Source: Heptranchias perlo (lineage: Eukaryota). From it: a stretch of DNA of 64,000 nt. The translations under genes were made by a program, and so were the position numbers. Position 1 is the stretch's first letter. Every line of letters begins with the position of its first letter. Of the stretch, positions 26,946 through 64,000 are shown in pieces. Below the pieces are notes generated by a model, which searched no databases, was not told the DNA's origin, and saw only the letters and a program-made list of their open reading frames with translations. Location: NCBI RefSeq assembly GCF_035084215.1, contig NC_090353.1:36394001-36458000 (forward strand), written 5' to 3'.

Positions 26946-26963
26946 TGGCGAGTCAGACAGGAA
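26946..26963 (+). promoter_or_regulatory. Primer binding site, tRNA-Arg(ACG)-like
   Basis: TGGCGAGTCAGACAGGAA versus TGGCGAGCCAGCCAGGAG (complement of vertebrate tRNA-Arg-ACG 3' end, from recall), 3 nt after the LTR end. Confidence 0.75.
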
Positions 26964-29769: not shown

Positions 29770-30120
29770 TTTTTTTTAATTCGTTCATGGGATGTGGGCG
29801 TCGCTGGCGAGACCAGCATTTATTGCCCATCCCTAATTGCCCTTGAGAAGGTGGTGGTGAGCCGCCTTCTTGAACCGCTGCAGTCCGTGTGGTGAAGGTT
29901 CTCCCACAGTGCTGTTAGGGAGGGAGTTCCAGGATTTTGACCCAGTGACGATGAAAGAACGGCCGATATATTTCCAAGTCGGGATGGTGTGTGACTTGGA
30001 GGGGAACGTGCAGGTGGTGTTGTTCCCATGCGCCTGCTGCCCTTGTCCTTCTAGGTGGTAGAGGTCGCGGGTTTGGGAGGTGCTGTCGAAGAAGCCTTGG
30101 CGAGTTGCTGCAGTGCATCT
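29770..30120 (-). mobile_element. 3' fragment of the 11384-14606 LINE family, nested in the ERV
   Basis: Reverse complement of 14262-14600. Confidence 0.9.
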
Positions 30121-30854
30121 CATGTACAAGATGTCAAAAGAGTTTGGAGAATTATTCTACAGTTGCAGGACTGTGTCCTATTTTATGTCTGTGAGATCTG
30201 AGGTCGAAATCAAATGTTTTCTTTTCAATTCGGCAAAATTTCTTTAAATTGAGTTGAAATCTGTCTGAGTCTGGAGCTGCTGTGGTGAAGCTGGCTCCGC
30301 CTTCTTCTCAGTCAGTACTGCCATGAAGTTTTAAAATCATGTTGCCTTCTACAGAGTTAGTTCCACATTGGGGACGACTTTGACCCTGTGGGTCTATAGC
30401 CGTCCAACGGGGGATCTTAGTCGGTAGCAAAATACAGAGCGTCCAAGACCACAGACTGTTGAGACATCAGGTCAGGGTTGTGTAGGGTGTTCTACTCCCA
30501 GTCTCCAAAGAAACTGGAGGCAGAAGAAATAATTCTTTGTGCTTTCTCCACAGATGAAGCGAAATGGATAATGTGATATTAATTACATTTATTATTGGGG
30601 AGTATAAAATGACAGGGACTTAGAAACTGTAAAATGTGCCCTAAGTGAATAATGTCCAATTTACAGTATTGTGATAAATGCCCACAAGAGATGTGCAGAT
30701 AAAACGGGAACGAGAAGTAGGAAGTGAAAGATAACATAATGGGGGTAGAAACTCGACCAGAGGAGGGTATCTTCAGGACAAGACAATTACAGTCGGACCC
30801 TGTGCGATGGGTAGGTGCGATAACAGGGTATTGGGAACAGGAATATCAATTTGG

Positions 30855-31045
30855 AATGGGATAGATGTTCAGACAATAGAGAATGGGATAGATGTTGAGA
30901 CTATAAAGAATGGGATAGATGTTGAGACTATGAAGAATGGGATAGATGTTGAGACTATAAAGAATGGGATAGATGTTGAGACTATAAAGAATGGGATAGA
31001 TGTTGAGACTATGAAGAATGGGATAGATGTTGAGACTATGAAGAA
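30855..31045 (+). repeat. 27-bp tandem repeat (NGIDVET[I/M]K x7) inside the ERV internal region
   Basis: Direct reading; in frame in ORF 30807-31241. Confidence 0.9.
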
Positions 31046-33936
31046 GCATACGCGACATTATGAACATACACAGGTCAAACTGGTCAATGTACTAATCCGA
31101 AACGCAATCAGTGAGCGAGCACAGGAGGAACAATATACCGTCTATAACACGCACAACACTGCCAAGTTTTTCACTCAGACGCAGGATAAACTAAATGAGA
31201 TGATACACAAGGGAAATGAGCAAGGAAAGGGAATAGAATGAGCAACCATTTCTCCGGCATACGGAGCAGATGTCCTTTTGTTTATTGATCAAACACTGGG
31301 ATTTTTGATGCGAGTTGAAGTCCCGGATGTGTTAAGGGACTACGACCCTGTCCGCTGGTATTCGATGGGAAATGGGGAAACAAATGTGAGGGGTGAAGTT
31401 CCACCTGAATCAACAATCCGCAATCTGGGGGACGCTCCGATTCACCCAACGGGCCAAGTTAGGGATAAGAGTAAACCTCGATTTTTACCCTATCCTCACC
31501 CATCGTGGATATTATGACCCAAGTGTTTCCCGAATTGGCAGAATCACATTCTGTGGGATATTTAGAGGGAGAAGTGTAGAAGCAAAGGGTAAATTCGCTT
31601 CAGTTAATGTGTATGACAGGAAAACTGCATCATAGAAGGTGCCCAATTAGGATTGTTGGGTCAAGCAGGGGAGCCGATAGCTGGGCCGATGTGAGTATTC
31701 CCTTGCCCCAGGCCTGAGTGCAGACGGTGCAGACATGGTCTAAAATTGAGACTAAAACTTTAAAATGGGAGGCGCAGGAAAAGATGCATGAACGAACTCG
31801 TAGTGACGCAAACACAAGAGGCTTGTTATAATTTGCAGTCAGAGATTATTCCCGCTCTGTTAAATTTTTCCTTCTGTATCTTTTGTCTTCTGATTTATGT
31901 AATTGAATGTTTGTAGATTTTTAATCACACTAAGAGAAATTGTTCACAGTTTTACTAAGTGCAATCGGGAAGAGATTCAGGTGAACTCACAGAGACAATA
32001 GGATCGAGATTAAACAATGCAGAAGCAAATAGAGGGATTACTGAAAGGAATGAATAGGCAGATAGGGGACGTTATATCAGATCAAGGGGTGTCCCTGGTT
32101 TTAATAGAACGACTGGCAGAGAGACAGGTTGGGGATATTGACAATCATCCAGAATAACAAAGACTAAGGAACAACTGATCTTCAAGGCAATTATGTCTGA
32201 AAGGTTTTTACAATGATCAGATTCAAAAGAGGGTTAAATGCTCTGGAAAACAATTAAATCCCAAATTTTATACTGGACAAAGAAATAAAAATTTGGAAAT
32301 CAGATCGGAATGTGGATTTTATCACCAATCAGTGAATTATTCACTAAAGTGTGAAGAGTTGGATTGATGAATTTTGCCAGCAAGCCTTGCAAGCAGAGTG
32401 AGATTTCACGACTGATTCCCGTGGTAGTTGCAATATCGCTGCTATCTGCTGATGTAAAACCGAGATTGAAAGTGGAATCGATGGGCTTGATCGAGGATGA
32501 TATGTGTAAGGAATTTGTAAATCATCCGAAGATCGAAGGTATCAGTAAAGGGAAATAGAAGGGATCTGGATTGCTCCAAACACTTCCTGCTATCCCAGGA
32601 AAAGTGGATCCTGGTTGTGCAGATGTGATGTTTTACAAAGTGCACGGCCAGCTTGTGGTTTCACCCTGGATGAAGAATCCCCTAATTATACTACTGAATT
32701 TGAAAAGGACCAATGTGATTTATTCGGAGAGGAAGGTATTAGGTTACAATTAACAGGAGGCCCAACACAAAAGGCAGCGCCGTATCTCCAGTTTGATGGT
32801 TAACGTCTTGCTTTACACCAACCAGAATTACTAAATTGGGGCTAAGATATCGGTGCCTGTTTTGGCCACAATGATACAAAATGAAAGTAAACATTACCCT
32901 CCAGACAGAAAGCTTATGAGTGGTTGTAAAATTTGGCCGTAAAGTGTACTTAAACGTGCTATCGGGAACATTAGATGGAGGCGGGGCTGTTTAGGACTGA
33001 CAGGGCAACTTAAGAAGTTCCTGATTATACAAATCCTGGTTACCACATCCCTCAGAGTGTCTGCCTGCTGGGTCCACAGTGGGTCTCGGAGTTAAAACAG
33101 AATGTGCGTCATTCCAAACCATTCCCCCATTGGACCAGATTGATTAAATAAGTGAGGGGTCGAAGACTTTGTCTTCTCCTCCTCAAGGTGGGGAATCTTT
33201 AACAAGATCGGAAATAGGGAAAAAGTGACATCTTTTTCAGAATACTACGCACCATCATGCTGTACGGGCTGTGCAGCTTATTTTGCTGAATTATAAACTG
33301 TTAACCTTTGACCGGTGATTGACCCCGTCACCCTCCCTGCTGGACAGAGCAGCTATGTGATAAAAGAGGAACAATGACCAAAACAGACATTAATCCAAAG
33401 ATAGCGACAAGACCAGGACCTTGTTGCGATAGCTGGACAATGCAACCTTGAAAAGGGTCTCGTGATTAAATGAGTAACATCAAAACATCTGGAATTCTTT
33501 GAAAAACAGCGTCATTAATCTATAAGAATTTTATGAGTGTTGACCCATATATGGTGTGAGTTTCCGGTCAAGGGGGCATAAAAACCCAACGTCTTTTGAG
33601 CTCAGGGCAGAGGATCCAGCGAAGGTCACTCTGTCGAGAGAACACTGAGCTCTCTGAAGATGACACCGCAGTCGGAAGAACAGCTGACTACCGGAACACG
33701 ACCTCACTGCGGGAAAACTTGAAATGACCACATTTCCAACTTAATTACGAGCTCTGCCCAGAGATCAAACGGGGAAATATTGTTTTGATCTTTGTTGTCT
33801 AAATATTTGATACCTTCACATGTTTGATTTGACTATTAAATAAATGAGACATTGATTACCAAGTGGTGTCACCTCCGAATCTGTTCCAGTGTGTGGGTCA
33901 CACTGCTAGTGAGCGCCGAGTGTTCGAGCTGCTTAC

Positions 33937-34000
33937 CTTCCAACGTCTTCTTCTCCTCTGCCAGATGCAAATGTTTTATCTGTGCATTGACCAGTTCCTC
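33937..34000 (-). pseudogene. PLVAP: Downstream coiled-coil exon in the inverted partial PLVAP copy (EELVNAQIKHLHLAEEKKTLE)
   Basis: Mirror of 61996-62059 with intact AG/GT. Confidence 0.65.
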
Positions 34001-34036
34001 CTGTTTGGATGCAAAGCAATTAAATTGTTACAATCG

Positions 34037-34610
34037 GACAGGAGTGGGCCCAAGGCCTGGTGTTAGAGTGGGGCAGGAGTGGGCCCAAGGCCTGGTGTTA
34101 GAGTGGAACAGGAGCGGGCCTGAGGCCTGGTGTTAGAGTGGGGCAGGAGTGGGCTCGAGGCCTGGTGTTAGAGTGGGGCAGGAGTGGGCCCGAGGCCTGG
34201 TGTTAGAGTGGGGCAGGAGTGGGCTCGAGGCCTGGTGTTAGAGTGGGGCAGGAGTGGGCCCGAGGCCTGGTGTTAGAGTGGGGCAGGAGTGGGCTCGAGG
34301 CCTGGTGTTAGAGTGGGGCAGGAGTGGGCCCGAGGCCTGGTGTTAGAGTGGAGCAGGAGTGGGCCAAGGCCTGGTGTTAGAGTGGGGCAGGAGTGGGCCA
34401 AGGCCTGGTGTTAGAGTGGAGCAGGAGTGGGCCCTAGTCCTGGTGTTAGAGTGGAGCAGGAATGGGCCCTAGTCCTGGTGTTAGAGTGGAGCAGGAATGG
34501 GCCCTAGTCCTGATGTTGGAGTGGAGCAGGAGTGGGCCCGAGGCCTGGTGTTAGAGTGGAACAGGAGTGGGCCTGAGGCCTGGTGTTAGAGTGGAGCAGG
34601 AGTGAGCCGA
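34037..34610. repeat. 35-bp minisatellite (GGAGTGGGCCCGAGGCCTGGTGTTAGAGTGGGGCA)n; partner 61000-61960
   Basis: Period 35; copy number differs between arms. Confidence 0.95.
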
Positions 34611-34919
34611 GTCAGACAGGACACTATCAGCATCAGATAGTGTCCTCACGATCAGGGATTTGAACCGTCGTAACCTTGAAAACTTTTACTGAGTTTGCCT
34701 CGACGTTCACTCTTTCCCAACTACTGTAGAACAAAACCAACTCACTCAGCCTTCCCTCACAACGTACATTCCCCACACCCAGAATCATTTCCATTCTCTG
34801 CCTCTAAGGATGTATCCAATTAATACCTTCCCTGTGAATCAGTGATGGGGTCTGATCCATGCCTTGTACTCACACAGTGCAACCTCTTCTGGATTGGTAA
34901 TGGGCCTGTAAAAGGCTCA

Positions 34920-36805
34920 TGAATTTCAATATAGAAAAGTGTGAGGTGGTGCATTTCAGTAGGAAGAATAAGGGGGCCACATACTCCTTGGATAATAAGA
35001 GTCTAAATAGGGTCGAAGAGTAGAGGGTTCAGGGGGTACAGATACACAAATCACTAAAAGTAGCGACGCAGGTTAATAAGGCCATAAAAAAGCAAACCAA
35101 GCACTGGGATTCATTAGAGGGATAGAATTGAAAAGCAGAGAAGTTATGTTAAACTTGTACAGAACCTTGGTTCGACCACACTTGGAGTATTGCAAACAGT
35201 TCTGGTCTCCATATTATAAAAAGGGATATCAAGGCACTGGAGAAGGTACAAAGAAGGTTTACTCGGATGATACCAGAACTGAGAGGTTATACCTATCAGG
35301 AAAGATTGAACAGGCTGGGGCTCTTTTCTCTAGAAAAGAGGAGATTGGGGGGGTGACCTGATAGAGGTCTTTAAGATTATGAAAGGGTTTGATAGGGTAG
35401 ACGTACAGAAGATGTTTCCACTTGTGGGGGAGACCAGAACCAGGGCCACAAATATAAGATAGTCACCAATAAATCCAATAGAGAATTCAGGAGAAATGTC
35501 TTTACTCAGAGAGTGGTGAGAATGTGGAATTTGCTACCACAAAGAGTAGTTGAGGTGAATAGTGTAGATGCATTTAAGGGGAAACTGGATAAGTACATAA
35601 GGGAGAAAGGAATAGAAGGAAAGACAGAGGGTGGTTGTAGAGGGTTGTTTTTCAAACTGGAGGCCTGTGACCAGCGGTGTGCCTCAGGGATCGGTGCTGG
35701 GTCCACTGTTATTTGTTATTTATATTAATGATTTGGATGAGAATTTAGGAGGCATGGTTAGTAAGTTTGCAGATGACACCAAGATTGGTGGCATTGTGGA
35801 CAGTGAAGAAGGTTATCTAGGATTGCACCGGGATCTTGATAAATTGGGCCAGTGGGCCGATGAATGGCAGATGGAGTTTAATTTAGATAAATGTGAGATG
35901 ATGCATTTTGGTAGATCGAATCGGGCCAGGACCTACTCCGTTAATGGTAGGGCGTTGGGGAGAGTTATAGAACAAAGAGATCCAGGAGTACAGGTTCATA
36001 GCTCCTTGAAAGTGGAGTCACAGGTGGATAGGGTGGTGAAGAAGGCATTCAGCATGCTTGGTTTCATTGGTCAGAACATTGAATACAGGAGTTGGGATGT
36101 CTTGTTGAAGTTGTACAAGACATTAGTAAGGCCACACTTGGAATACTGTGTACAGTTCTGGTCACCCTATTATAGAAAGGATATTATTAAACTAGAAAGA
36201 GTGCAGAAAAGATTTACTAGGATGCTACCGGGACTTGATGGTTTGACTTATAGGGAGAGGTTGGATAGACTGAGACTTTTTTCCCTGGAGAGTAGGAGGT
36301 TAAGGGGTGATCTTATTGAAGTCTATAAAATAATGAGGGGCATAGATAAGGTAGATAGTCAAAATCTTTTCCCAAAGGTAGGGGAGTCTATAACGAGGGG
36401 GCATAGATTTAAGGTGAGAGGGGAGAGATACAAAAGGGTCCAGAGGGGCAATTTTTTCACTCAAAGGGTGGTGAGTGTCTGGAACGAGCTGCCAGAGGCA
36501 GTAGTAGAGGCGGGTACAATTTTGTCTTTTAAAAAGCATTTGGACAGTTACATGGGTAAGATGGGTATAGAGGGATATGGGCCAAGTGCAGGCAATTGGG
36601 ACTAGCTTAGTAGCATAAACTGGGCGACATGGACATGTTGGGCCGAAGGGCCTGTTTTCATGTTGTAAACTTCTATGATTCTATGATATGCTGATAGGGT
36701 GAGATGAAGTAGGGAGGGAGGAGGCTCGTGTGGAGCATAAACACCAGCACAGACCAGTTGGGCCGAATGGCCTGTTTCTGTGCTGTACATTCGATGTAAT
36801 TCTAT
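34920..36805 (+). mobile_element. Older CR1-type LINE fragment interrupted by a younger CR1 insertion
   Basis: Uninterrupted counterpart at ~59875-60690 (-). Confidence 0.85.
35621..36686 (+). mobile_element. Young 5'-truncated CR1 LINE (RT C-terminal half, open frame 35631-36605)
   Basis: GVPQGSVLGP, FADD, QWADEWQMEFN; (TTCTATGA)n tail; absent from the right arm. Confidence 0.92.
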
Positions 36806-37124
36806 GGTAACAGTCCCTCTCCTTCATGCAGAACAGGAACTGCTGTGTCTGGGCAACAGAGAGAAGGTCACAGGTTAAATAAACAGCCATTGCCAAGAGG
36901 AAGGAGGAAGCTCTCAGACTGGGCTCCAGATCACAAATAGTAAACACCAGCAATACCCCTTTCCCCCAGGGAGTGAGAATGGAATGAAAGGCAAGAGAAT
37001 AGTCACGAGCTTTTCATTCTGGAAATAAACATAGGATGAGGGGAGCTGGATTTGAATGGTGTGAGGCCACTGTCGCAGTGAAACTCCCAAAGGGGTTTGA
37101 TAGTCACACAGGACCATTAAAATG

Positions 37125-37535
37125 TCAGCAGTGGCTCAGTGGGTTGCTCTCTCACCTTTGAGTTCGGAAGTTGTGGGTTTGATCCCCATAATCTAAGCTG
37201 ATACTGAGGGAGCGCTGCACTGTCGGAGGTGCTGTCTTTTGGATGAGATGTTAAACTGATGTCCCATCTGCCCTCTCAAAGATCCCATGGCCACTATTTT
37301 GAAGAAGAGCAGGGGAGTTCTCCCCAGTGTCCTGGCCAATATTTATCCCTCAACCGACACCACTAAAACAGTTTATCTGGCAATTGTCATGTTGCTGTTT
37401 GTGGGATCTTGCTGTGCACAAATTGGCTGCTGTGTTTCCTACATTACAACAGTGACTACACTTCAAAAGTACTTCATTGGCTGTGAAACACTTTGGGACG
37501 TCCTGAGGATATGAAAGTTGCTATAGAAATGCAAT
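37125..37535 (+). mobile_element. DeuSINE (mirror at 59145-59555)
   Basis: SINE head, body and tail. Confidence 0.8.
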
Positions 37536-37849
37536 CCTTACTTTTTAAACTGTGGGAAGAAGTATATTGAACGATGTTATCAAGGAAGCAATTGAAGAGC
37601 ATTCAGTGGGAGTCAACCCAATAAATATCCGAACCAACTCGACTTTAAGGAAAGGAAGTCGTGTCTAACAAAGTTATTGGGATTTATTCCTTCTCTCCCC
37701 CACCGTTTTCCTTCCTCTCCTGAAGGTGCTGACCCTGCACAGGGTCCAGTTCCAAAGGCTTCAGCCCGACCGAAGTGACCATACTCCATGTGCCTTGGCT
37801 TTGTGATGCTTCATCCCCAAAAAGAAAGGTCGTTCCAATTTAGGTCTCC

Positions 37850-38295
37850 CATCACCCCCTGAGCTCGCTGACCTACATTGGCTCCCAGTCCAGGAACGGC
37901 TCGATTTTAAAATCCTTGTTTTCAAATCCCTCCGTGGCCCTCGCCCCCTCCCTATCTCTGTAACCTCTTCTAGCTCTACAACCCTCCGAGATCTCTGCAC
38001 TCCTCCAATTCTGGCCTCTTGCTCATTCCCCGTTTTAATGGCTCCACCATTGGCGGCCGTGCCTTCAGCTGCCCAGGCCTTAAGCTCTGGAATTCCCTCC
38101 CTAAACCTCTCCGCCTCTCTCTCCTCCTTTAAGACACTCCTTAAAACCCACCTCTTTAACCAAGCTTTCGGTCAGCTGTCCTAATATCTCCTTATGTGGC
38201 TCGGTGTCAAATTTTGTTTGATAATTGCTCCTGTGAAGCGCCTTGGGACGTTTTACTATGTTAAAGGTGCTATATAAATGCAAGTTGTTGTTGTT
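37850..38295 (+). mobile_element. L2-type LINE 3' fragment (mirror at 58385-58835)
   Basis: CTCTGGAATTCCCTCCCT...AAAGGTGCTATATAAATGCAAG(TTG)n tail shared with the DeuSINE. Confidence 0.75.
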
Positions 38296-38309
38296 GTAAA
38301 GTTCCTTCT

Positions 38310-38670
38310 ACACTGTCCCATCAAACACTCCCAGGGCAGGTACAGCACGGGTTTGATACAGAGTAAAGCTCCCTCTACACTGTCCCATCAAACACTCCCA
38401 GGGCAGGTACAGCACGGGTTAGATACAGAGTAAAGCTCCCTCTACACTGTCCCATCAAACACTCCCAGGGCAGGTACAGCACGGGTTAGATACAGAGTAA
38501 AGCTCTCTCTACACTGTCCCATCAAACACTCCCAGGGCAGGTACAGCACGGGTTAGATACAGAGTAAAGCTCCCTCTACACTGTCCCATCAAACACTCCC
38601 AGGGCAGGTACAGCACGGGTTAGATACAGAGTAAAGCTCCCTCTACACTGTCCCATCAAACACTCCCAGG
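38310..38670 (+). repeat. 67-bp dispersed minisatellite (~5 copies; ~1.4 copies in the right arm)
   Basis: Same unit as 8477-8700. Confidence 0.95.
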
Positions 38671-39049
38671 TCGCTTATTTCTTTTCCAAGTTATTCTCTT
38701 CCCTTCCTTATCTCTCTCCTAAGTGTATTTTCTTCATACGTGAATCTGGACAGTGAACTGGCTATTTGACCATGGGGCCTTCACTGCCAAACCCATTCTT
38801 GTCCCGACTTGACGCCCACAGATGAGCCCTTTTTGTGGCAGGGGGTCACTGTAGTGATTGGGAGTTCGATCCCTGGCTGTCTTTCCTTCTTCCTCGCCCA
38901 GGGATACTTCATTTACTGAAATGCCCCGACTCAGCACAGGCTGACAATTGAACTGTCGGGGTCTTCCTGGTCTATTTGGGCCACAGTCTCACTGAGATTA
39001 ATCAGCCAGGCCATCAGGAGGGGCAGCTCCTCCACACTTATGCACTCAC

Positions 39050-39747
39050 CCTTTCACTGAAACAGGACACTGATGATATTCGGTCGGAACCCGGGTTGAG
39101 GAAGGAATCAGTTTGCCCGTTTCTGGTGTTAGTGGCCGTCAGTTGTCTCCTCAACTTATTCCGTTCCTCCAGGAGCTGCACCTTCTCGGTCAAGTATTTC
39201 TCTACGTCCTCTTGCAGTGACGACTCCCTTTTCCTGAATTGGTCCGATTGGGCCGCTGCCTTCTGCTCACATTCCTCGTTCATCTTCTCCAAGATCCCGA
39301 TCCTCGAGCTTTGTTCATTGTTTTGATGCCACATCCCTTTGATCATTGCGTCAAAGCGGTCGACCTCCCGCTGGACCTCTCTCTGAAAGTTTGAAGATAG
39401 CGGTGTGCAGTTGACCATTATTTGCTCCAATTGTCTGTTCAGATTTTGGTCATAGCCACCTATCCGTTCAGTGAGTCGTCTGAAGCTTGCTTCATAGTTA
39501 GTTCTAGCAGCACCCATCATCTTCTGGAAGTCCCTGCTTAAGGATGTGCAGTTCCCTCTGAGATCTTCAACCTGTTTAAGCAGCTCTCTCTTCTGACTGT
39601 TGAGTTTCGTTTCTTCCAACACGTGTTTTGCCTGCTTGAGTTCGTTCTCGGCCGCGATATCTGCGAGCTTCTTCTGGAGCATTGAGTGGTTTGCTTGCAA
39701 GATGTCGTATGATCTCGTCACGTCCAATCCTCTGTTCAGGTTGGGGC
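39050..39747 (-). pseudogene. PLVAP: PLVAP exon 3 in the inverted 5'-truncated duplicate (no promoter, exon 1 or exon 2)
   Basis: Identical translation to 57202-57899 with intact splice sites; homology stops at 41376, before exon 2. Confidence 0.85.
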
Positions 39748-39844
39748 CTGGAGTTATGAAAGATGTGGTGACATCGTTAACATTCTCGTCACAGCACTTT
39801 TCTCAAAGCGATTTTTAAAGCCAACAGTTTCAGTATGCAAAGCA

Positions 39845-40250
39845 TTGTGGGAGCACGCAACAGAGCAGTGCATGGTGGGAGCACGCAACAGAGCAGTGCA
39901 TGGTGGGAGCACGCAACAGAGCAGTGCATGGTGGGAGCATGCAGCACTGCAGTGCATTGTGGGAGCATGCAGCACTGCAGAGCATGCTGGGAGCATGCAG
40001 CACTGCAGTGCATTGTGGGAGCACGCAACAGAGCAGTGCATGGTGGGAGCATGCAGCACTGCAGTGCATGGTGGGAGCACGCAACAGACCAGTGCATGGT
40101 GGGAGCACGCAACAGAGCAGTGCATGGTGGGAGCACGCAACAGAGCAGTGCATGGTGGGAGCACGCAACAGAGCAGTGCATGGTGGGAGCATGCAGCACA
40201 GCAATGCATTGTGGGAGCACGCAACAGAGCAGTGCATGGTGGGAGCATGT
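39845..40250. repeat. 28-bp minisatellite (GTGGGAGCACGCAACAGAGCAGTGCATG)n; partner 56645-57105
   Basis: Period 28; source of Cys/His-rich pseudo-ORFs. Confidence 0.95.
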
Positions 40251-40328
40251 CCCGTTGTAATGCATTGTGGGCACAGGATTGTGAACCAGTGTACTTCATT
40301 GGCCCCGTGCAGTGCAAAGTGCGACAAA

Positions 40329-41112
40329 GGGCCACAATTTGCTGGAGCGGGGCATCGAACCGCTTCTGCCATTCGTTAGATTTGCCTTTGCACGTTTAGG
40401 TTTTTAAATTTTACGCGTGGCGACTTGCTGAAAGTGCGAGGTGATAAAGGGGCAGTGGGGGAAAGAGGGCATCTGGGACCTGAGTGAACAGGGCACGCAA
40501 CTGGGTATCTCATTCGCCAATCAGATTGACGGATTGTGAAATTAACAGCGCAAGGACCGAGAAGGAAATGTAAATTAGAGAGGGTGAATTCAACGTCAAA
40601 TCAGGTACAGAAAGAGAAATAAAGAGAGGGAAAGAAAGATTGGATTGAGAGAGAGAGAAAAAAGACAGCAAGGATAAGTAAAACAAAATTTAAAATTTTA
40701 CATTTTTAAAATCTCCAACAACAATTAAAACCTGAAGGAATGAGACCCCACACTTGTAATATTAACTTTCAGCGCCAGAGAGGTTGACTGGCAGTAATTA
40801 ACGCTTATCACAGTATTAAAAGGAAACGTAGGCGGGAATGGACAAGACTTAACTTTCTGTGGCGAGTTCACTTCGTATCTATCGTGAAAATACAGGAACG
40901 TCACGCAGCTCAATGTATTTCAACGGTGACGCAGACGGCGAGATGCCTTTTTCGCAAAGCTAACAGCGGAATGGTGTGTCTCGGACAGCAACTTTTGGAT
41001 ATCCGCGTTTAACCTCGCATCTGCCCCTCGCCTGAAGTTGCTGGACCATTTGTGCATAAATAACGGCCAATGCCATTAGCCTCGCCGTTATTTTGACAGC
41101 AAAATCTGGGCC
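40329..41112. mobile_element. Possible non-autonomous DNA transposon (mirror ~55780-56565)
   Basis: Imperfect terminal inverted repeats GGCCACAATTTGCTG / CAGCAAAATCTGGGCC. Confidence 0.45.
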
Positions 41113-42600
41113 AGTGTGAGGTCCTCTAGGAACATAGGGACAGGAAGAGACCATTCAGCCCCTCGAGCCTGTTCTGCCATTAATTAAGATCATGGCTGAT
41201 CTGTATCTTAACTCCATCTACCCTTGGTTCCGTAATCCCCTTTGCCTAACAAAAATTTATCAATCTCAGTTTTGAAATTTTCAATTGACCCCCGGCCTCA
41301 ACAGCTTTTTGTGGGAGAGAGTTCCAGATTTCCACTCCCCTTTGTGTGAAGAAGTGCTTCCTGACATCACCCACTGAACGGCCTGGCTCTAATTTTAAGG
41401 TTATTCCCCCTTGTTCAGGACTCCCCCTCCAGAGGAAATAGTTTCTCTCTATCTACCCTATCAAATCCTTTAATCATCTCAAATACCTCAATTAGATCAT
41501 CCCTTAATCTTCTATACAGGGGAGAATACAAGTCTACTCTACGCAACCTGTCCTCATCATTTAACCCTTTAGCCCCGGTATCATTCTGGTGAATCTACAC
41601 TGCGCCCCCTCCAAGGCCAATATCTCCTTCCCAAGGTGTGGGGCCCAGAGCTGAACGCATTACTCTAAACTGCAGGGAGAACTGAATCAGGAAGAGGTCC
41701 CCCACGTTCCCCCTCCCCCCAGGTTGCCCTTTCTGGCTTTAAACTTGGACCAAAAAGCCGACCAGCAGCCAGCAGGAGCCTTCACAGGGCAGTTATTTAG
41801 GAGAGGGAGAGGCACCAAGCCCAGCGGCACCATCTAGCCGCAGCTCCGTGGGAGCACTGTAGCATTCGGAGTCAGAAGGTCGTGGGTTCGAGCCCCACGC
41901 CAGAGACTTGAGCACAAAATCTAGGCTGACACTCCCAGGGCCGGTACCGAGGGGGCGCCGCACCGTCGGAGGGCCGGTACCGAGGGGGCGCCGCACCGTC
42001 GGAGGTGCTGTCTTTCGGAGGAGACGTTAAACCAAGACCCAGTCTGTCCTCTCAGGCGGACGTAAAACATCCTCATGACGCTATTTCGAGGAAGAGCAGG
42101 GGAGTTCTCCCCGGTGTCCTGGGCTAATATTTATCCCTCAACCAACACCACTAAAACCGATTATCTGGTTATTACCTCATTGCTGTTTGTGGGATCTTGC
42201 TATGCGCAAATTGACTGCCGCGTTTCCTATATTACAACAGTGACTACACTTCAAAAAGTACTTCATTGGCTGTAAAGCACTTTGGGACGTCCTGAGGTTG
42301 TGAAAGATGATATCTAAATGCAAGTCTTTCTCTAGCTAATCACTTAAAAAAATTTTTAATTTTTCACAGTCCAGAATCACAATTTCGACTATTAAAAATA
42401 ATTATATCCAGACTATTCCGGTGGTAATTTTGCTTTGTTTGGCCCCCAGATGGAGAGGGCGGGGAAACTTTGATCCGTTTATTTTGGGACCCGGCTGTCA
42501 GTGGGATACAGTCCAAGTTGCCCTGGGTCGTACTGAAGGCCGACAGGTGCAGGATCTTCGGTCCTTCGATTGAGGTTCCTTGCCGGCTGGGAGCCAGTCG

Positions 42601-42702
42601 CTACTGCTCGTCTTCCAGAGGCATCACAGAGGTCACCGGCTCTGTCTTCTGTTCGTCCGGAATACCTGACTCATCCAACAAGATTCCTTTGCCTGGTTGA
42701 CC
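42601..42702 (-). CDS. MPV17L2: MPV17L2 copy B, coding exon 5
   Basis: Same as 10801-10902. Confidence 0.7.
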   Translation of the reverse strand, partial: GQPGKGILLDESGIPDEQKTEPVTSVMPLEDEQ

Positions 42703-42741
42703 CTGAGAGCAAGAGAGAAAGAAAGAACTTGCATTTATATA

Positions 42742-43767
42742 TATATATTTTTTTATTCGTTCACGGGATGTGGGCGTCGCTGGCAAGGCCGGCATTTATT
42801 GCCCATCCCTAATTGCCCTCGAGAAGGTGGTGGTGAGCCGCCTTCTTGAACCGCTGCAGTCCGTGTGGTGACGGTTCTCCCACAGTGCTGTTAGGAAGGG
42901 AGTTCCAGGATTTTGACCCAGCGACAATGAAGGAACGGCGATATATTTCCAAGTCGGGATGGTGTGTGACTTGGAGGGGAACGTGCAGGTGGTGTTGTTC
43001 CCATGCGCCTGCTGCCCTTGTCCTTCTAGGTGGTAGAGGTCGCGGGTTTGGGAGGTGCTGTCGAAGAAGCCTTGGCGAGTTGCTGCAGTGCATCCTGTGG
43101 ATGGTACACACTGCAGCCACAGTGCGCCGGTGGTGAAGGGAGTGAATGTTTAGGGTGGTGGATGGGGTGCCAATCAAGCGGGCTGCTTTATCTTGGATGG
43201 TGTCAAGCTTCTTGAGTGTTGTTGGAGCTGTACTCATCCAGGCAAGTGGAGAGTATTCCATCACACTCCTGACTTGTGCCTTGTAGATGGTGGAAAGGCT
43301 TTCGGGAGTCAGGAGGTGAGTCACTCGCCGCAGAATACCCAGCCTCTGACCTGCTCTTGTAGCCACAGTATTTATATGGCTGGTCCAGTTAAGTTTCTGG
43401 TCAATGGTGACCCCCAGGATGTTGATGGTGGGGGATTCGGCGATGGTAATGCCGTTGAATGTCAAGGGGAGGTGGTTAGACTCTCTCTTGTTGGAGATGG
43501 TCATTGCCTGGCACTTATCTGGCGCGAATGTTACTTGCCACTTATGAGCCCAAGCCTGGATGTTGTCCAGGTCTTGCTGCATGCAGGCTCGGACTGCTTC
43601 ATTATCTGAGGGGTTGCGAATGGAACTGAACACTGTGCAGTCATCAGCGAACATCCCCATTTCTGACCTTATGATGGAGGGAAGGTCATTGATGAAGCAG
43701 CTGAAGATGGTTGGGCCTAGGACACTGCCCTGAGGAACTCCTGCAGCAATGCCTTGGGGCTGAGATG
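42742..43767 (-). mobile_element. 5'-truncated insertion of the 11384-14606 LINE family, specific to copy B
   Basis: Open RT C-terminal frame 42809-43783; inserted in a SINE tail with an apparent ATATA duplication. Confidence 0.92.
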
Positions 43768-45512
43768 ATATAGCGCCTTTCACAACCTCAGGACGTCTTA
43801 AAGCTCTTTACAGCCAAAGAAGTACTTTTTTTTTTGAAGTGTAGTCACTGTCGTAATGTAGGGAAATGCGGCAACCAATTTGCGCACAGCAAGATCCCAC
43901 AAACAGCAATGTGAGAATGACCGGATAAATTGCTTTTAGCGATGTTAATTGAGGGATAAATAATGGCCCAGGACATCAGGGAGAACTCCCCTGCTCTTCT
44001 TCCAATAGTGCCCATGGGATCATTTACGTCCACCTGAGGGGGCAGACGAGGCCTCGGTTTAACATCTCATCCGAGAGACGGCACCTCCGACAGTGCAGCA
44101 CTCCCTCAGTATTGCACCGGGAGTGTCGGCCTGGGATTACGTGCTCAAGTCTCTGGAGTGGGCCAATATCGTAACAACATGAAGATTTTTTTCACTCTTT
44201 TTATCAGATTTAAAAGGCTCAAGTTTTTGGGACCACAAATATCCACATATCGGCTAAAAATTGCCAAAGACAAATGAATAACTGTCTCCGAGTGCACACA
44301 TGCATTCGTTGTGAGGCTCAGTCGAAGGTTTGCAATATCCTTTCAGCCCTGTCTCATATTCAGTTGAATATTATTTATCATGTGCATTTTTTGGGTAACC
44401 AAATACTTATCAGTATCTCTATTCATCAAACTCTCATTGTACAGAATGATAGGGAGAAACTGTTCCCACTGGCAGGAGGGTCGGTAACCAGAAGACACAG
44501 ATTTAAAATAATTGGCAAAAGAGCCAGAGGGAAGATGAGGAGATTTCTTTTAACGCAGCGAGTTGTTATGATCTGGAATGCGCTGCCTGAAAGGGCGGTG
44601 GAAGCAGATTCAATAATAACTTTCAAAAGGGAATTGGATAAATACTTGAAGGGGAAAAATTTGCAGGGCTATGGGGAAAGAACAGGGGAGTGGGACTAAT
44701 TGGATAGCTCTTTCAAAGAGCCGGCACGAGTACGATGGGCCGAACGGCCTCCTTCCCTGCTATACAATTCAATGATAAGAGACGGCTGAGCTAGACTGAC
44801 ATCAGAAGGGGCAGCAAATAAAATACACAACAGGTGGCTCCCGAGCAATAACCTTACCGTCACTGAGCGAACAATATGCTGCATCCCACCACTTCCTACC
44901 AGTGGAGCAAGTGAGAAGGCAACCTTTCACCTCTGGGATCCAAGTTCAAACGTAGTTCATCCCCAATAAGGTGAAAGTCTTCCCTTTCTGTTGGCTGCTG
45001 GGACCAATTGCCAGTTACTTTGCCACAGGGTCAAGTGGGCAGGGGTCATAGCACAAAACTGCTCTAATTCAATACTAATTGTAAATCTTACTCATCGAAA
45101 CCACGGGTGTGGGAAGTGTGCAAATACTGGGACAGAAGGGAGTCCTCTGACGGAGGGTTAGTACAGCACAGAGCGAGCTTTACTCTGTATCTAACCCGTG
45201 CTGTACCTGCCCTGGGAGTGTCTGATGGGACAGTGTAGAGGGAGCTTTACCCTGTATCTAACCCGTGCTGTACCTGCCCTGGGAGTGTTTGATGGGACAG
45301 TGTAGAGGGAGCTTTATTCTGTATCTAACCCTGTACCTGCCCTGGGAGTGTTTGATGGGACAGTGTAGAGGGAGCTTTACTCTGTATCTAACCCGTGCTG
45401 TACCTGCCCTGGGAGTGTTTGATGGGGAGACTGGGTCAAATATTCAGGACTAATGTCCCTCACCAAGAAGACGTCACGGACAAGATTCGAGCTCCTGCCA
45501 AAATCCACGTAC

Positions 45513-45641
45513 CTGGTGTTTCAGATAGGAGAGGAAAGTGTACCATCCAACAGTTAGAAAATTCACGTACAGCACGCGGAATTTCTGAGGGACGTAAAAG
45601 AAGTTGATCATCTGGGCCGCCGGCCAAACCGTCCAGTCCGC
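45513..45641 (-). CDS. MPV17L2: MPV17L2 copy B, coding exon 4 (FFYVP, GWYTF)
   Basis: 129 nt, AG/GT, two nonsynonymous differences from copy A. Confidence 0.9.
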
Positions 45642-46372
45642 CTGTAAACAGACAATTCATTCAAACGTTAAATCTCCTGAAGTGACTCCACAAAAGCAAA
45701 TCGGCAATTTCAACCCCTCCTGAAAGGCTGGTTTCAAGTTGGGGTGTTTGGGGGTGGGGGAGATACAGGGGGTCTCTTTCTCCTCCCCACCCCCACCAAG
45801 TTTTTCCTTCGGTGTGGCATCCACCTCTGTGGTGCAGCGTCCCGCCAACAATCCCGGGACGCTGGGGCTGTGAGCTGGGCAGTCAAAGTTTGAAACCTGC
45901 AATTCAAAGGGGAGGAAGTGATGCTGCAGTTGTACAGAGCCCTGGTCAGACCCCGTCTGGAGACTGGGTTCACTTCTGGGCCCCGCACCTCGGGAAGGAT
46001 ATTCTGGCCTTGGAGGGGGTGCAGTGGGTTCACCAGGAGCACATTACAACAGTAACGACACTTCAAAAGTACTTCATTGGCTGTAAAGCAGTTTGGGACG
46101 TCCCGAGGCATCAAATTCTATTTGTACAACACGGGATTATCCGGGGTCGTGATTCACAATTCCATCTAATCTTTGCTAAAACTCTCAGGTTAGTGACATG
46201 GGCTACATTAACACTGATTAAGCTGCAAGACAAGAAAGGGTTTGTGTTTTATTTTTGTGGCTGATAGCCGGCTCTGGCAAAAGATGCTCCAAATATCAGA
46301 GGACGGGACTGGCAGGGAAACCATCAAATGCCAAAACCAAGTTTCCACGGCAAAAGACTTTTGGAGTTTTAC

Positions 46373-46449
46373 CTTGTAAAATTCCCAGAACTTGTTCTTG
46401 AACTCCAGACCGCAGTCCATGAGACTGTGTCCTTCTAATGTTCCCATCC
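46373..46449 (-). CDS. MPV17L2: MPV17L2 copy B, coding exon 3
   Basis: 77 nt, same as copy A. Confidence 0.9.
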
Positions 46450-47298
46450 CTGTCGGAATAGATCACAGGGTCACAGTTAAACATTTCAGATCAGGTACAA
46501 ATCCTTTGTGACAGGCTGCCTTCACCTCCGCGAGCTGCGTTATCCTCCTCCTGTCCCACCAACACCTCATTATCGTTACACAAACCACGCCACGCTGATA
46601 GAAACATAGGAACAGGAGCAAGCCATGCAGTGCCTCGAGTCTGTTCCGCCAGTCGATTAGGTCCTGGCTCTAATATTAAGGTTACTCCCCCCTGTTCTGG
46701 ATTCCACCACCGGGGGAAATAGTTTCTCTCCAACTCCCCCATCGAATCCCTTTATCATCCTAAATACCTCAATTAGATCACCCCATAACCATCTAAACTC
46801 GAGGGAATACAAGCCAAGTTTACACAGCCTGCCTTCATAATTTAACCCTTTTAGCCCCGGTATCATTCTGGTGAATCTGCGCTGCACCCCCTCCAAGGCC
46901 AATATATCCTTCCTGAGCTGCGGTGCCCAGAACTGAACGCAGTATCTCCAGGTGAGGGTCTGAGCAAGGCTCAGTACAGCTGAATCATCACTTCCTCACT
47001 GAATAATACTGTACCCCCGTGTTATACAGTGACAGACCTGTACCCACCAGTACTGTACCCAAGTGTTATACAGTGACAGACCTGTACCCACCAGTACTGT
47101 ACCCAAGTGTTATACAGTGACAGACCTGTACCCCAGTGTTGTACAGTGATAGACCTGTACCCACCAGTGGTGCTGGTCTTTCTTCACAGATTGAATGGGT
47201 GCAGTGTGAAGATTTCCCACACCTCCTGCACTGGGTGAGGGAGGTACAATGTCAATTGTGGCCGAGACTCTTCGGAGACACAGAAATGTTAGACGTAC

Positions 47299-47460
47299 CA
47301 AAGAAGTAAAAGATGCCGAAGATGGGCGAGGCAATGATCTGGTCCAACAGAACCTTTTTGACGACGATGGGTGTTGTTCTCCCCGGGAATCTTCCATCCA
47401 GACCCCTGTACCAGTAATGCACAATGGGGCCCAATAAACAGCCTGTAGCAAACATTCGGC
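47299..47460 (-). CDS. MPV17L2: MPV17L2 copy B, coding exon 2 (GPIVHYWY)
   Basis: 162 nt, AG/GT. Confidence 0.9.
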
Positions 47461-48113
47461 CTGAGTGGAGAATGGAGCAAAGAAACACACAACAGTGATA
47501 CCGGCAAGAGAAAGAGCCAGTACTGTGTCCCCCGCGTCCTACCCTTCAGCCTTGAACGGAAGGCAAAGAGAAGGATCCAAGATATTGAGTGAGTGGAAAG
47601 TTAATCCCGAGTCACTGTTACAGGTTAAACCACAACCGCAGGACTGGATGGCCCTTTTCGTACTTTGCCTGTGACTATTTTTGCACGGGAGCAAGCCCGG
47701 GGTGGGGTGGGGGTCATCACCACTGGGTCCCAATCTGGACCACCCCTGTACCCCAGTGTTATACAGTGACAGACCTGTACCTACCAGTACTGTACCCGTG
47801 TTATACAGTGACAGACCTGTACCCACCAGTACTGTACCCCAGTGTTATACAGTGACAGACCTGTACCCACCAGTACTGTACCCCAGTGATATGCAGTGAC
47901 AGACCTGTACCCACCAGTACTGTACCCCAGTGTTATACAGTGACAGACCTGTACCCACCAGTACTGTACCCCAGTGTTATACAGTGACAGACTTGTACCC
48001 GCGTTTCCTCACACCAATGACCACACTTCAAAAAAGTACTTGATCGGCTGTAAAACGCTTTGGGACGTCCCGAGGTGGTAAAAGGCAATGAGAAAGGCAA
48101 GTTATTCTTTTAC

Positions 48114-48300
48114 CTGTTCGAGCCCATTCCCGCAGGTGGTCCGGGTCCCTGCGGATTTCTCGGGTTTGCTGGATTATGTCCCCAGTCGCCATCAGGGCTC
48201 CGGAGCTCACGGTGTTCGTCACAAGCAGAAATCTGTCGCTGAACAGCGGCTTCCAGCAACCGAGCAAGCGGACAAAGAGACTCCGATTGGGGGAGACCAT
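48114..48300 (-). CDS. MPV17L2: MPV17L2 copy B, coding exon 1 with junction-derived ATG (MVSPNRSLF...)
   Basis: 187 nt; ATG formed at a deletion junction; expression unknown. Confidence 0.75.
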
Positions 48301-49864
48301 CGCTGTATCGCTTCTCGCCACCAATCAAATCCCCTCCCTGCCTTGATTGATACAAACATTGACCAATGAACCGGCGGGGCTGCCACCACTGAGCCAGTCA
48401 GATTGTCAACTACGAAAGGGGCAGGAACATGGCTGTGTGTTACGTCATTGCTCACTTTACATAAATTAATATTCAACAGACTTCATTAGCATATTTAAAG
48501 GGGCACCTCAGGGTCCGGTGTGGACAGACTCTGGGCAGCCTCATTTCATCAATCAGTTGGTCCAAAACCCCACTGACCCTTCACCGCGTCGTCAGCGAGG
48601 GGCCGGCCCGCCCTCCCGAACAAAATGTTTCCGGCGCACGAGGAACGTTTTTTCTTTTGTCTCAAACCTTTATTTTCGTCATTGCTATTAACAAGTAAAG
48701 ACGGCCTTGCATATTTATATAGCGCCTTATCTCCATTGCTTAAAATACCCCCAAAGGGCTTCACGCGCAATGATTTATTTCGAAGTGCAGTCGCTGTCAT
48801 CGTGTGGGCAAACATGGCAGCCATTTTTGAGGGTAGCAAGATCCCACAAATAGCAACCAGGGGAATGACCAATTATTATGTTATGGTGGTGTCGCTTGAG
48901 GGAGGAATGTTAGCCAAGGCACCAGGGGAACAGCGCTGCTCTTCCAATAACACCATGGGATCTTTAACATCCACCTGAAGAGACAGACGGGGCCTCGGCT
49001 TAACATCTCATCCGAATGACGGCGCCTCCGACAGTGCAGGACTCCCTCAGTACTACACTGGGAGTGTCAGTCTCGATTACGTGCTCAAGTCCTGGAGTGG
49101 GGCTTTTATTACTGACACGACATACATCGTCTCCCATTAACAGTTTAGGGAAAATAAACCATCGAGTGGCAGCTGCCATATAAAGAAAGAAAGAACTTGT
49201 ATTTATACAGAGCCTTTCACAATCTCAGGACGTCCCACAGTGATTTGCAGACAATGAAATACTTTGGAAGTGTAGTTACTGTTGCAATGTAGGGAAACGT
49301 GGCAGCCAATTTGAGCACAGCAAGATCCCAGAAACAACAATACCATAAAAGGACCAAATAATCTGTTTTACGTTTTGGTTTGAGGGATAAATTTTGTCCA
49401 GGGCACCGGGGAAAATTCCCCTGCTCTTCTTCAAATAGTGTCGTGGGATCTTTTACGTCCACCTGAGAGGGCAGACTGAGCTTCGGTTTAACATCACATC
49501 CAAAAGACAGCACCTTCCAGCTGGATTTTGTGCTCAAGTCTCTGGAGTGGGATTATGAACGCACAACTATTCTGACTCAGAGGCAAGTGTGCTACCCACT
49601 GAGCCATGGCTGACACCTAATGTAACATGTCTAGCTCGTCCCTGTCTCTGGTTTCTATTTCTTTCCTCTCCTCTTTCGCTCTCCAGGGTGTCTCTCCATC
49701 CCACCCCCTAACAAGTCTCCATCGCTCCCCTCCCCCATCCATCTCTCTTCCCCTCTCCCTCTGTTCTCCAGCCTCAATCCCTCTTTCGGTCTCACTCCCC
49801 TTCCACTCTCCAGCCTCTCGTCTCCCTTTCCCCCAGTCTCTAACCTCTACCATTAATAAATAAT

Positions 49865-60800: not shown

Positions 60801-61995
60801 TCCTTAGAGGCAGAGAATGGAAATGATTCTGGGTGTGGGGAATGTACGTTGTGAGGGAAGGCTGAGTGAGTTGGTTTTGTTCTACAGTAGTTGGGAAAGA
60901 GTGAACGTCGAGGCAAACTCAGTAAAAGTTTTCAAGGTTACGACGGTTCAAACCCCTGATCGTGAGGACACTATCTGATGCTGATAGTGTCCTGTCTGAC
61001 TCGGCCCATTCCTGCTCCATTCTAACACCAGGCCTCAGGCCCACTCCTGTTCCACTCTAACACCAGGCCTCAGGCCCATTCCTGCCCCACTCTAACACCA
61101 GGCCTCGGGCCCACTCCTGTTCCACTCTAACACCAGGCCTCGAGCCCACTCCTGCCCCACTCTAACACCAGGACTAGGGCCCATTCCTGCTCCACTCTAA
61201 CACCAGGACTAGGGCCCACTCCTGCCCCACTCCAACACCAGGCCTCGGGCCCACTCCTGCCCCACTCTAACACCAGGCCTCGGGCCCACTCCTGCCCCAC
61301 TCTAACACCAGGACTAGGGCCCATTCCTGCTCCACTCTAACACCAGGACTAGGGCCCACTCCTGCCCCACTCTAACACCAGGCCTCGGGCCCACTCCTGC
61401 CCCACTCTAACACCAGGCCTCGGGCCCACTCCTGTTCCACTCTAACACCAGGCCTCGGGCCCACTCCTGCCCCACTCTAACACCAGGACTAGGGCCCACT
61501 CCTGCCCCACTCTAACACCAGGCCTTGAGCCCACTCCTGCCCCACTCTAACACCAGGCCTCAGGCCCACTCCTGCCCCACTCTAACACCAGGCCTCAGGC
61601 CCACTCCTGCCCCACTCTAACACCAGGCCTCAGGCCCACTCCTGCCCCACTCTAACACCAGGCCTCGGGCCCACTCCTGCCCCACTCTAACACCAGGACT
61701 AGGGCCCACTCCTGCCCCACTCTAACACCAGGCCTCAGGCCCACTCCTGTTCCACTCTAACACCAGGCCTCAGGCCCGCTCCTGTTCCACTCTAACACCA
61801 GGCCTCGGGCCCACTCCTGCTCCACTCCAACATCAGGACTAGGGCCCATTCCTGCCCCACTCTAACACCAGGCCTTGGCGCACTCCTGCCCCACTCTAAC
61901 ACCAGGCCTTGGCCCACTCCTGCCCCACTCTAACACCAGGCCTTGGGCCCACTCCTGTCCGATTGTAACAATTTAATTGCTTTGCATCCAAACAG

Positions 61996-62059
61996 GAGGA
62001 ACTGGTCAATGCACAGATAAAACATTTGCATCTGGCAGAGGAGAAGAAGACGTTGGAAG
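61996..62059 (+). CDS. PLVAP: Probable downstream PLVAP exon (EELVNAQIKHLHLAEEKKTLE)
   Basis: TTGCTTTGCATCCAAACAG acceptor, AG|GTAAGC donor, phase 0 compatible with exon 3. Confidence 0.65.
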
Positions 62060-62107
62060 GTAAGCAGCTCGAACACTCGGCGCTCACTAGCAGTGTGACC
62101 CACACAC

Positions 62108-64000
62108 TGGAACAGATTCGGAGGTGACGCCACTTGGTAATCAATGTCTCATTTATTTAATAGTCAAATCAAACATGTGAAGGTATCAAATATTTAGACA
62201 ACAAAGATCAAAACAATATTTCCCCGTTTGATCTCTGGGCAGAGCTCGTAATTAAGTTGGAAATGTGGTCATTTCAAGTTTTCCCGCAGTGAGGTCGTGT
62301 TCCGGTAGTCAGCTGTTCTTCCGACTGCGGTGTCATCTTCAGAGAGCTCAGTGTTCTCTCGACAGAGTGACCTTCGCTGGATCCTCTGCCCTGAGCTCAA
62401 AAGACGTTGGGTTTTTATGCCCCCTTGACCGGAAACTCACACCATATATGGGACAACACTCATAAAATTCTTATAGATTAATGACGCTGTTTTTCAAAGA
62501 ATTCCAGATGTTTTGATGTTACTCATTTAATCACGAGACCCTTTTCAAGGTTGCATTGTCCAGCTATCGCAACAAGGTCCTGGTCTTGTCGCTATCTTTG
62601 GATTAATGTCTGTTTTGGTCATTGTTCCTCTTTTATCACATTGCTGCTCTGTCCAGCAGGGAGGGTGACGGGGTCAATCACCGGTCAAAGGTTAACAGTT
62701 TATAATTCAGCAAAATAAGCTGCACAGCCCGTACAGCATGATGGTGCGTAGTATTCTGAAAAAGATGTCACTTTTTCCCTATTTCCGATCTTGTTAAAGA
62801 TTCCCCACCTTGAGGAGGAGAAGACAAAGTCTTCGACCCCTCACTTATTTAATCAATCTGGTCCAATGGGGGAATGGTTTGGAATGACGCACATTCTGTT
62901 TTAACTCCGAGACCCACTGTGGACCCAGCAGGCAGACACTCTGAGGGATGTGGTAACCAGGATTTGTATAATCAGGAACTTCTTAAGTTGCCCTGTCAGT
63001 CCTAAACAGCCCCGCCTCCATCTAATGTTCCCGATAGCATGTTCAAGTACACTTTACGGCCAAATTTTACAACCACTCATAAGCTTTCTGTCTGGAGCGT
63101 AATGTTTACTTTCATTTTGTATCATTGTGGCCAAAATAGGCACCGATATCTTAGCCCCAATTTAGTAATTCTGGTTGGTGTAAAGCAAGACGTTAACCAT
63201 CAAACTGGAGATACGGCGCTGCCTTTTGTGTTGGGCCTCCTGTTAATTGTAACCTAATACCTTCCTCTCCGAATAAATGACATTGGTCCTTTTCAAATTC
63301 AGTAGTATAATTAGGGGATTCTTCATCCAGGGTGAAACCACAAGCTGGCCGTGCACTTTGTAAAACATCACATCTGCACAACCAGAATCCACTTTTCCTG
63401 GGATAGCAGGAAGTGTTTGGAGCAATCCAGATCCCTTCTATTTCCCTTTACTGATACCTTCGATCTTCGGATGATTTACAAATTCCTGACACATATCATC
63501 CTCGATCAAGCCCATCGATTCCACTTTCAATCTCGGTTTTACATCAGCAGGTAGCAGCGATATTGCAACTACCACGGGAATCAGTCGTGAAATCTCACCA
63601 GGGACACCCCTTGATCTGATATAACATCCCCTGTCTGCCTATTCTTTCCTTTCAGTAATCCCTCTATTTGCTTCTGCATTGTTTAATCTCGATCCTATTG
63701 TCTCTGTGAGTTCACCTGAATCTCTTCCCGATTGCACTTAGTAAAACTGTGAACAATTTCTCTTAGTGTGATTAAAAATCTACAAACATTCAATTACATA
63801 AATCAGAAGACAAAAGATACAGAAGGAAAAATTTAACAGAGCGGGAATAATCTCTGACTGCAAATTATAACAAGCCTCTTGTGTTTGCGTCACTACGAGT
63901 TCGTTCATGCATCTTTTCCTGCGCCTCCCATTTTAAAGTTTTAGTCTCAATTTTAGACCATGTCTGCACCGTCTGCACTCAGGCCTGGGGCAAGGGAATA
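62108..64000 (-). mobile_element. 3' LTR and internal region of the same ERV in the intact PLVAP copy
   Basis: Reverse complement of 31696-33888 with a 300-bp deletion. Confidence 0.9.

Follow-up and report, generated by a model that had tools for sequence, protein, structure and literature searches.

A copy of MPV17L2 in Heptranchias perlo that lost its start codon to a deletion and opens in frame at a former promoter ATG

Results

Two copies of MPV17L2 in one window

We analyzed a stretch of 64,000 nt from the genome of Heptranchias perlo (GCF_035084215.1, contig NC_090353.1, positions 36,394,001 to 36,458,000; from here on, the window, with positions counted from its first letter), which holds two copies of MPV17L2, both on the minus strand. 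Copy A (10801–20412) is complete, with exons at 20412–20223, 18684–18523, 16758–16682, 15950–15822, and 10902–10801, and encodes a protein of 219 aa that starts MSVSPN. Copy B lies in a duplicated block (41129–49831) homologous to the block around A (9357–22600) and encodes a protein of 218 aa that starts MVSPN, from five exons of 187, 162, 77, 129, and 102 nt with GT-AG splice sites throughout. The coding part of B exon 1 (48114–48300) is identical to A after the junction described below, and its next in-frame ATG is that of M37 at 48192. In exon 2 (47299–47460), three changes lie close together at 47425–47417, two of them replacements (F76I and A77V) and the third synonymous; exon 4 (45513–45641) carries F159Y (45595) and D177Y (45542), all in A numbering; and exon 3 (46373–46449) and the coding part of exon 5 with the stop codon (42601–42702) are the same as in A. 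As the initial annotation had claimed, the 218-aa frame is open across all five exons, in which we found no premature stop codon, frameshift, or broken splice site. The introns are retained, the poly(A) signal is intact, and the parent copy is present in the window.

The identity of the gene is supported by a match to Pfam family PF04117 (84.7 bits against a curated cut-off of 27), by 77% identity to the sawshark MPV17L2 orthologue, and by the named proteins among the 120 matches listed of 232, almost all of which are labelled mpv17-like 2. A structure model built on 63 sequences is confident and all-helical (pLDDT 86.7), and a search for a solved structure of the Mpv17/PMP22 family found none. 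The human MPV17L2 protein is described as an inner-membrane factor in mitochondrial ribosome assembly, in a family rich in lineage-specific duplications (PMC4117752). Compared with the known gene, B shares the five-exon plan of A but lacks Ser-2 and carries D177Y. With exon 1 as the query, a protein search gave 13 matches, of which the best is an H. perlo mpv17-like protein 2 of 218 aa that is identical to B and represents a cluster of two members; the junction ATG is thus already present in a database protein. Most likely, this entry was predicted automatically, with the junction ATG taken as the start. Because its frame and splice sites are still unbroken, B is listed as coding by automatic annotation.

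A deletion took the native start codon and put a promoter ATG in frame

Alignment of the A and B blocks confirmed the loss described in the initial annotation. The segment 20408–21554 of A (1147 bp, minus strand), which RNA contigs enter from exon 1, is gone from B, with identity on the left up to A 20407 (B 48298) and on the right from A 21553 (B 48297), and the two overlap in a 2-bp CC microhomology at 48297–48298. The native ATG (20412–20410), an E-box (21517), and a GGAAG ETS core (21537) lie within the missing segment, as had been claimed, together with a GC box (20858), five upstream ATGs of the 5′ leader (21209, 20768, 20699, 20683, and 20678), and a low-complexity repeat (about 20861–21507). 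The minus strand now reads GCG ATG GTC TCC across the junction, which places an in-frame ATG at 48300–48298 in a strong Kozak context (gcgATGG, with G at −3 and at +4). The claim that the junction supplies an in-frame ATG therefore holds for the frame, the MVSPN start, and the Kozak context. As a refinement, the triplet itself is the one at A 21556–21554, where it opens a frame of 14 codons in the A promoter. The ATG predates the deletion, which did not create the triplet and merely put it in frame.

We asked how often such an outcome arises by chance by simulating all deletions that remove the ATG of A, with the upstream breakpoint in 20413–21999. For maximum distances of 1, 10, and 40 codons from the junction, an in-frame ATG was present in 4.0, 10.0, and 14.6% of the 19,044 breakpoint pairs, respectively; among the 7,065 pairs whose microhomology was 2 bp or longer, the values were 4.2, 10.8, and 15.6%. 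The in-frame ATG is thus only mildly beyond chance, being uncommon and, for a post hoc find in a genome scan, unremarkable.

Comparison with outgroups upheld, at the protein level, the view of B as the deleted, derived state. Seven of 10 cartilaginous-fish entries have an M-S/A-V start as in A, six of them directly at the N terminus and the seventh behind a short extension; an M-V-S-P start occurs in none of the 10. Because the outgroup starts match A, we conclude that A is ancestral at the start codon. Further, at each of the four sites where the proteins differ, A has the residue of the shark and ray orthologues, and all four replacements are derived on B.

Spliced RNA contigs carry the sequence of copy A

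RNA contigs on 45450–48900 were compared in the best four (X1–X4) of 16 listed runs, all from one sample with unrecorded tissues; the remaining runs (X5–X16, share 0.05–0.08) lay outside the comparison. The four runs were flagged as RNA by guess, and each of the three introns in the range is spliced out of their contigs, with CT..AC ends. In all four assemblies, a single spliced contig that reaches exon 5 carries A's base at all five coding differences, and an intron-1 contig is of the A type at all six substitutions and both indels; X2 adds an intron-3 contig, likewise of the A type. The exon-1 contig runs past 48298 in three assemblies. In X4, the first 30 letters beyond this point equal A 20408–20437 and the contig then continues, to 472 nt beyond exon 1; the overrun is 467 nt in X1 and 336 nt in X3 (letters not shown). 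If unspliced, the two longest contigs end at 20879 and 20874, at the start of the low-complexity repeat of A. Because these contigs run from exon 1 into it, the leader of A lies in the segment that B has lost. The exon-1 contig of X2 breaks at 48275.

Upstream of the junction, the depth of the bin 48234–48349 comes wholly from the exon-1 contig ending at 48298 in X1, X3, and X4, and the depth over 48350–48697 is zero in X2–X4 and stems from one contig in X1. This contig (48418–48593, 177 nt, depth 2.6) is of the B type at all four substitutions and at the one indel, and may represent B-derived RNA of either strand or DNA carry-over. We discarded missing RNA cover upstream of the junction as a line of evidence, as a coverage hole proves nothing. 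At the exon 2 and 4 alleles, which had been proposed as the check for B-specific transcripts, the spliced contigs are all of the A type in four of four assemblies, and the one B-type contig lies upstream of the junction. In Logan contigs, only the major allele survives and minor alleles are collapsed (PMC12424806), which would hide any minor transcript of B. The data thus identify A as the consensus transcript of the sample and leave room for low or tissue-restricted expression of B.

We also note that RNA contig bases at 47526, 45838, and 46627 match neither copy and are probably allelic variation of A. Among the short intronic contigs, X4c22 lies in a repeat, and X2c10, X3c16, X4c23, and X2c13 span no A/B difference.

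The residual promoter and the predicted transcription start of B

B retains an upstream promoter module at 48301–48700 (48299–48650 being the counterpart of A 21555–21900), with CCAAT boxes at 48321 and 48363, CGTCA at 48443, ATTAGCAT at 48485, and TATTTAAA at 48492. The GGGCGG box at A 21675 reads GGGCAG in B (48423), and the observed/expected CpG ratio of the module is 0.81 in B versus 0.83 in A. The order of these elements (CCAAT, GC box, CGTCA, ATTAGCAT, TATTTAAA) reads like that of a plus-facing promoter, directed away from MPV17L2, with CRE, octamer-like, and TATA-like elements. Rfam gave no matches at gathering score in the window and, in the upstream module, one chance match only (E 0.94), with no structured RNA. 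Farther upstream, at 48850–49335, B contains 484 bp of extra SINE sequence that is absent in A.

The proximal CCAAT box, at 48321–48325, was found where the initial annotation had put it, about 20 nt upstream of the ATG; the two boxes lie about 20–21 and 63 nt from it. In mammals, CCAAT boxes are reported 60–100 bp upstream of start sites (PMC4889920). Under this mammalian rule, transcription of B would most likely start at about 48303–48221, on or past the ATG. The claim that the fate of B turns on where transcription starts is supported. On the other side, an out-of-frame ATG at 48359 (minus strand) opens 46 codons that overlap the junction ATG and leaves a window of about 50 nt between the two ATGs in which a start would give a clean leader. 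M37 lies inside helix 22–51 of the structure model, and residues 16–34 hold seven sites conserved at 95–100%; a start at M37, in the middle of this helix, would therefore cost the protein its conserved N-terminal segment.

The leader of A itself looks unusually long. If unspliced, it measures at least 467–472 nt as judged from the contigs, a stretch that holds four upstream ATGs; a purine-rich repeat of 640 nt lies farther up the leader region (20413–21554), and the transcription start of A is predicted to fall within 20880–21554.

Replacements on copy B accumulated at the neutral expectation

Non-coding sequence of A and B differs at 108 of 5397 sites (2.0%; 98.0% identity), and the coding sequences differ at five sites, namely F76I, A77V, one synonymous site, F159Y, and D177Y. 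If a branch evolved neutrally, 4.4 replacements would be expected on it; the observed counts are 4 on B and 0 on A (p = 0.012 for a neutral A). The probability of at least four replacements on B is 0.001 at ω = 0.1, 0.013 at 0.2, and 0.047 at 0.3. Three of the five differences, the exon-2 cluster, lie within 9 nt and may stem from a single event, and counting them as one event gives 0.011, 0.06, and 0.15 at the same values of ω; no local donor for the 9-nt cluster was found within the window. Synonymous differences number one, against 3.6 expected (p = 0.13), and with counts this small, positive selection on B is neither indicated nor excluded. Asp-177, in the GWD motif of the last helix, is Asp in A and in 122 of 124 homologues, the other two being entries with aberrant C termini, and is Tyr in B. 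The other new residues of B are known in the 124 homologues (Ile in 5, Val in 1, and Tyr in 8). Position 177 probably corresponds to Asn-166 of human MPV17. Both MPV17 N166K and yeast N172K are reported to be non-functional (PMC8701800). The test for purifying selection on B, which a rescued paralogue needs, failed, with all four replacements, D177Y included, falling on B; the pattern suggests a probable loss of purifying selection on this copy. The open frame of B is no evidence of selection, because 0.95 disabling changes would be expected on a neutral B at 2% divergence and the probability of none is about 0.39.

A rearranged neighborhood shared with PLVAP

Next to the 3′ flank of B lies an inverted copy (31696–41376, minus strand) of 55517–64000 and possibly beyond, which contains PLVAP exon 3 without exons 1 and 2 and is joined to the B flank inside a LINE-like fragment common to both parents. 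PLVAP itself occupies 53346–57899 on the plus strand (exon 1, 53346–53708; candidate exon 2, 55402–55462; exon 3, about 57201–57899), head to head with B at a distance of 5 kb, with its own TATA-like box and a Pfam PV-1 match in exon 1. Exon 1 ends at an apparent GC-type donor (AAG/GCAAGT, 53708–53710), placed from the frame only. The two copies of exon 3 (about 57201–57899 and 39050–39748) show no differences in 698 nt, and other segments of the arms differ by 0.5–2.5%, which suggests gene conversion between the arms. These inverted repeats, of at least 8.5 kb, enclose a 14-kb spacer (41377–55516) with MPV17L2-B and PLVAP exons 1 and 2, and recombination between the arms would flip the spacer and join PLVAP exons 1 and 2 to the other copy of exon 3. 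We further note that the exon-3 copy at 39050–39748 (minus strand) lies 2.9 kb downstream of the B stop codon on the same strand, and that its acceptor shares phase 1 with the donors of B exons 1 and 2, which would in principle permit an in-frame chimeric splice.

The old 3′ flank appears to have stayed with A and the old 5′ flank with B. In its layout, the locus is similar to an inversion that duplicated both ends and after which the spacer flipped, or to the product of a template switch. Staggered breaks are described as the origin of inversions that carry duplications at both breakpoints (PMC1885836). As in such inversions, two different segments are duplicated at the ends of the rearranged region, one of them inverted. 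Unlike in such inversions, A and B share one orientation, which requires that the 14-kb spacer flipped afterwards or that a template switch took place, and homologous LINE-like fragments contain one of the junctions. The rearranged region has its far end outside the window, the end of which cuts the arm 55517–64000.

Mobile elements are frequent at this locus. LTR-retroelement or endogenous-retrovirus-like pieces occupy 26436–33889, with a 510-bp direct repeat pair of 88% identity and a weak, below-cut-off zinc-knuckle match at 28646–28861 (E 0.011), and the right part of this element recurs in the inverted arm at about 62107–64000. Intron 4 of A contains a near full-length young LINE (11384–14606) with endonuclease and reverse transcriptase matches. 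A 1-kb LINE copy in the opposite orientation and 96.9% identical lies in B at about 42748–43769, about 40 nt upstream of the exon-5 acceptor. We regard these as two separate insertions of one young family that took place after the duplication.

Discussion

We consider B to be most likely a non-productive young tandem duplicate of MPV17L2 that is turning into a pseudogene and whose in-frame ATG arose by chance. The initial annotation had left it open whether B is a rescued gene or an unexpressed copy, and the RNA consensus, the neutral count of replacements, and D177Y make the evidence lean toward a non-functional copy. A deletion of 1147 bp flanked by microhomology took the start codon and the leader used by the mRNA of A and put an existing promoter ATG in frame, leaving a frame one codon shorter. 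We envisage that end-joining or template slippage at the 2-bp match produced this deletion, and that the same event also took the transcription start, the core promoter, and the ETS and E-box sites. RNA driven by the leftover CCAAT boxes would then begin on or past the ATG and be translated from M37, halfway along the first long helix, and RNA started upstream of 48359 would carry the overlapping out-of-frame ATG. B would thus yield little or no full-length protein, would have drifted without selection for most of its life, and would have kept an open frame merely through youth.

It is unlikely, but worth weighing, that B is transcribed weakly or in few tissues from its CCAAT module and, from starts in the window of about 50 nt, gives a weakened 218-aa by-product that is not under selection. 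The strong Kozak context, the intact splice sites and poly(A) signal, the module that is still rich in CpG, and the B-type contig of X1, 120 nt upstream of the junction, are consistent with this, as is the report that five of seven human 5′-truncated duplicates are still transcribed (PMC6169893). Set against it are the A consensus at every diagnosable exonic site in four of four assemblies, the exon-1 contig that crosses 48298 unbroken into non-B sequence in three of four, and the position of the proximal CCAAT box, which would fall within the leader.

We judge it quite improbable that B was rescued and is a selected paralogue, in which a long leader and its upstream ATGs gave way to a short leader and a strong start, and adaptation accounts for the four replacements. 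An in-frame ATG no more than one codon from the junction, expected in about 4% of cases by chance, an entirely open frame, and four replacements against at most one synonymous change on B would fit such a history; however, the number of replacements equals the neutral expectation (4 versus 4.4), D177Y alters a residue shared by 122 of 124 homologues, an open frame has a probability of about 0.39 under neutrality, and the RNA consensus is A. Equally improbable in our view is a bolder version, in which the one deletion made a translationally de-repressed MPV17L2 paralogue that has a very short leader, a stronger start codon taken from the promoter, and D177Y in its last helix, is expressed in an unsampled tissue, and shares a possibly flipping 14-kb cassette with the PLVAP promoter. 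The leader of A that would have been replaced, if unspliced, contains four upstream ATGs and is no shorter than 467 nt, perhaps 1.1 kb. Were this version true, one small deletion in a slowly evolving vertebrate would have yielded a new leader, a new start codon, and a variant protein, and the near-identical sister copy A would serve as a built-in control.

We give slightly less credence still to an assembly artefact, in which B would be the second haplotype of a single gene placed in tandem. The region is repeat-rich and rearranged, and parts of the inverted arms are identical, but the copies differ by 2.0% in non-coding sequence, carry separate LINE insertions (A, 11384–14606; B, about 42748–43769), and meet the inverted arm, on the side of B, in a clean switch inside a shared repeat; X1 also contains contigs of both types, though an allelic pair would give the same. 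Finally, that B is ancestral and A gained the 1147 bp is almost certainly wrong, as it has in its favor nothing except that no outgroup DNA bears on the non-coding part, and it conflicts with the A-like starts in seven of 10 cartilaginous-fish entries, with no M-V-S-P start among them, and with the outgroup residue kept by A at the four differing sites.

Unprocessed (duplicated) pseudogenes keep their introns and have their parent gene present. Our preferred reading, of B as a non-productive duplicate, places it early on this path, as it has introns, a tandem position, replacements at the neutral rate, and RNA dominated by the parent, but, unlike a typical unprocessed pseudogene, it has no disabling stop codon, frameshift, or broken splice site. 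Segmental duplicates truncated at the 5′ end, and so without the ancestral promoter, are described for CHRFAM7A, HYDIN2, ROCK1P1, GTF2IRD2P1, and CORO1AP (PMC6169893). Like these, B is a duplicate of high identity (98.0%, above the 90% mark of that class) that lacks the 5′ end of its parent and whose fate hangs on a new or internal start. Unlike in the CHRFAM7A type, the loss in B is an internal deletion and not a duplication breakpoint, with homology to A on both sides, out to 49831, and B keeps the upstream part of the parent's promoter and the whole frame, one residue shorter. B therefore acts like a 5′-truncated young duplicate but is not a strict member of the class, because its loss is an internal deletion. 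A literature search on genome duplication in H. perlo, on shark MPV17L2, and on deletion in duplicates with a new start codon (subscription papers and supplements lay outside its scope) returned nothing on this locus.

If B is indeed a non-productive copy, the locus gives a clean snapshot of a duplicate whose transcription start site is probably gone and whose frame is still intact. It would also be a warning that the 218-aa sevengill shark protein in the database may come from an inactive copy and that D177Y should not be taken for shark biology.
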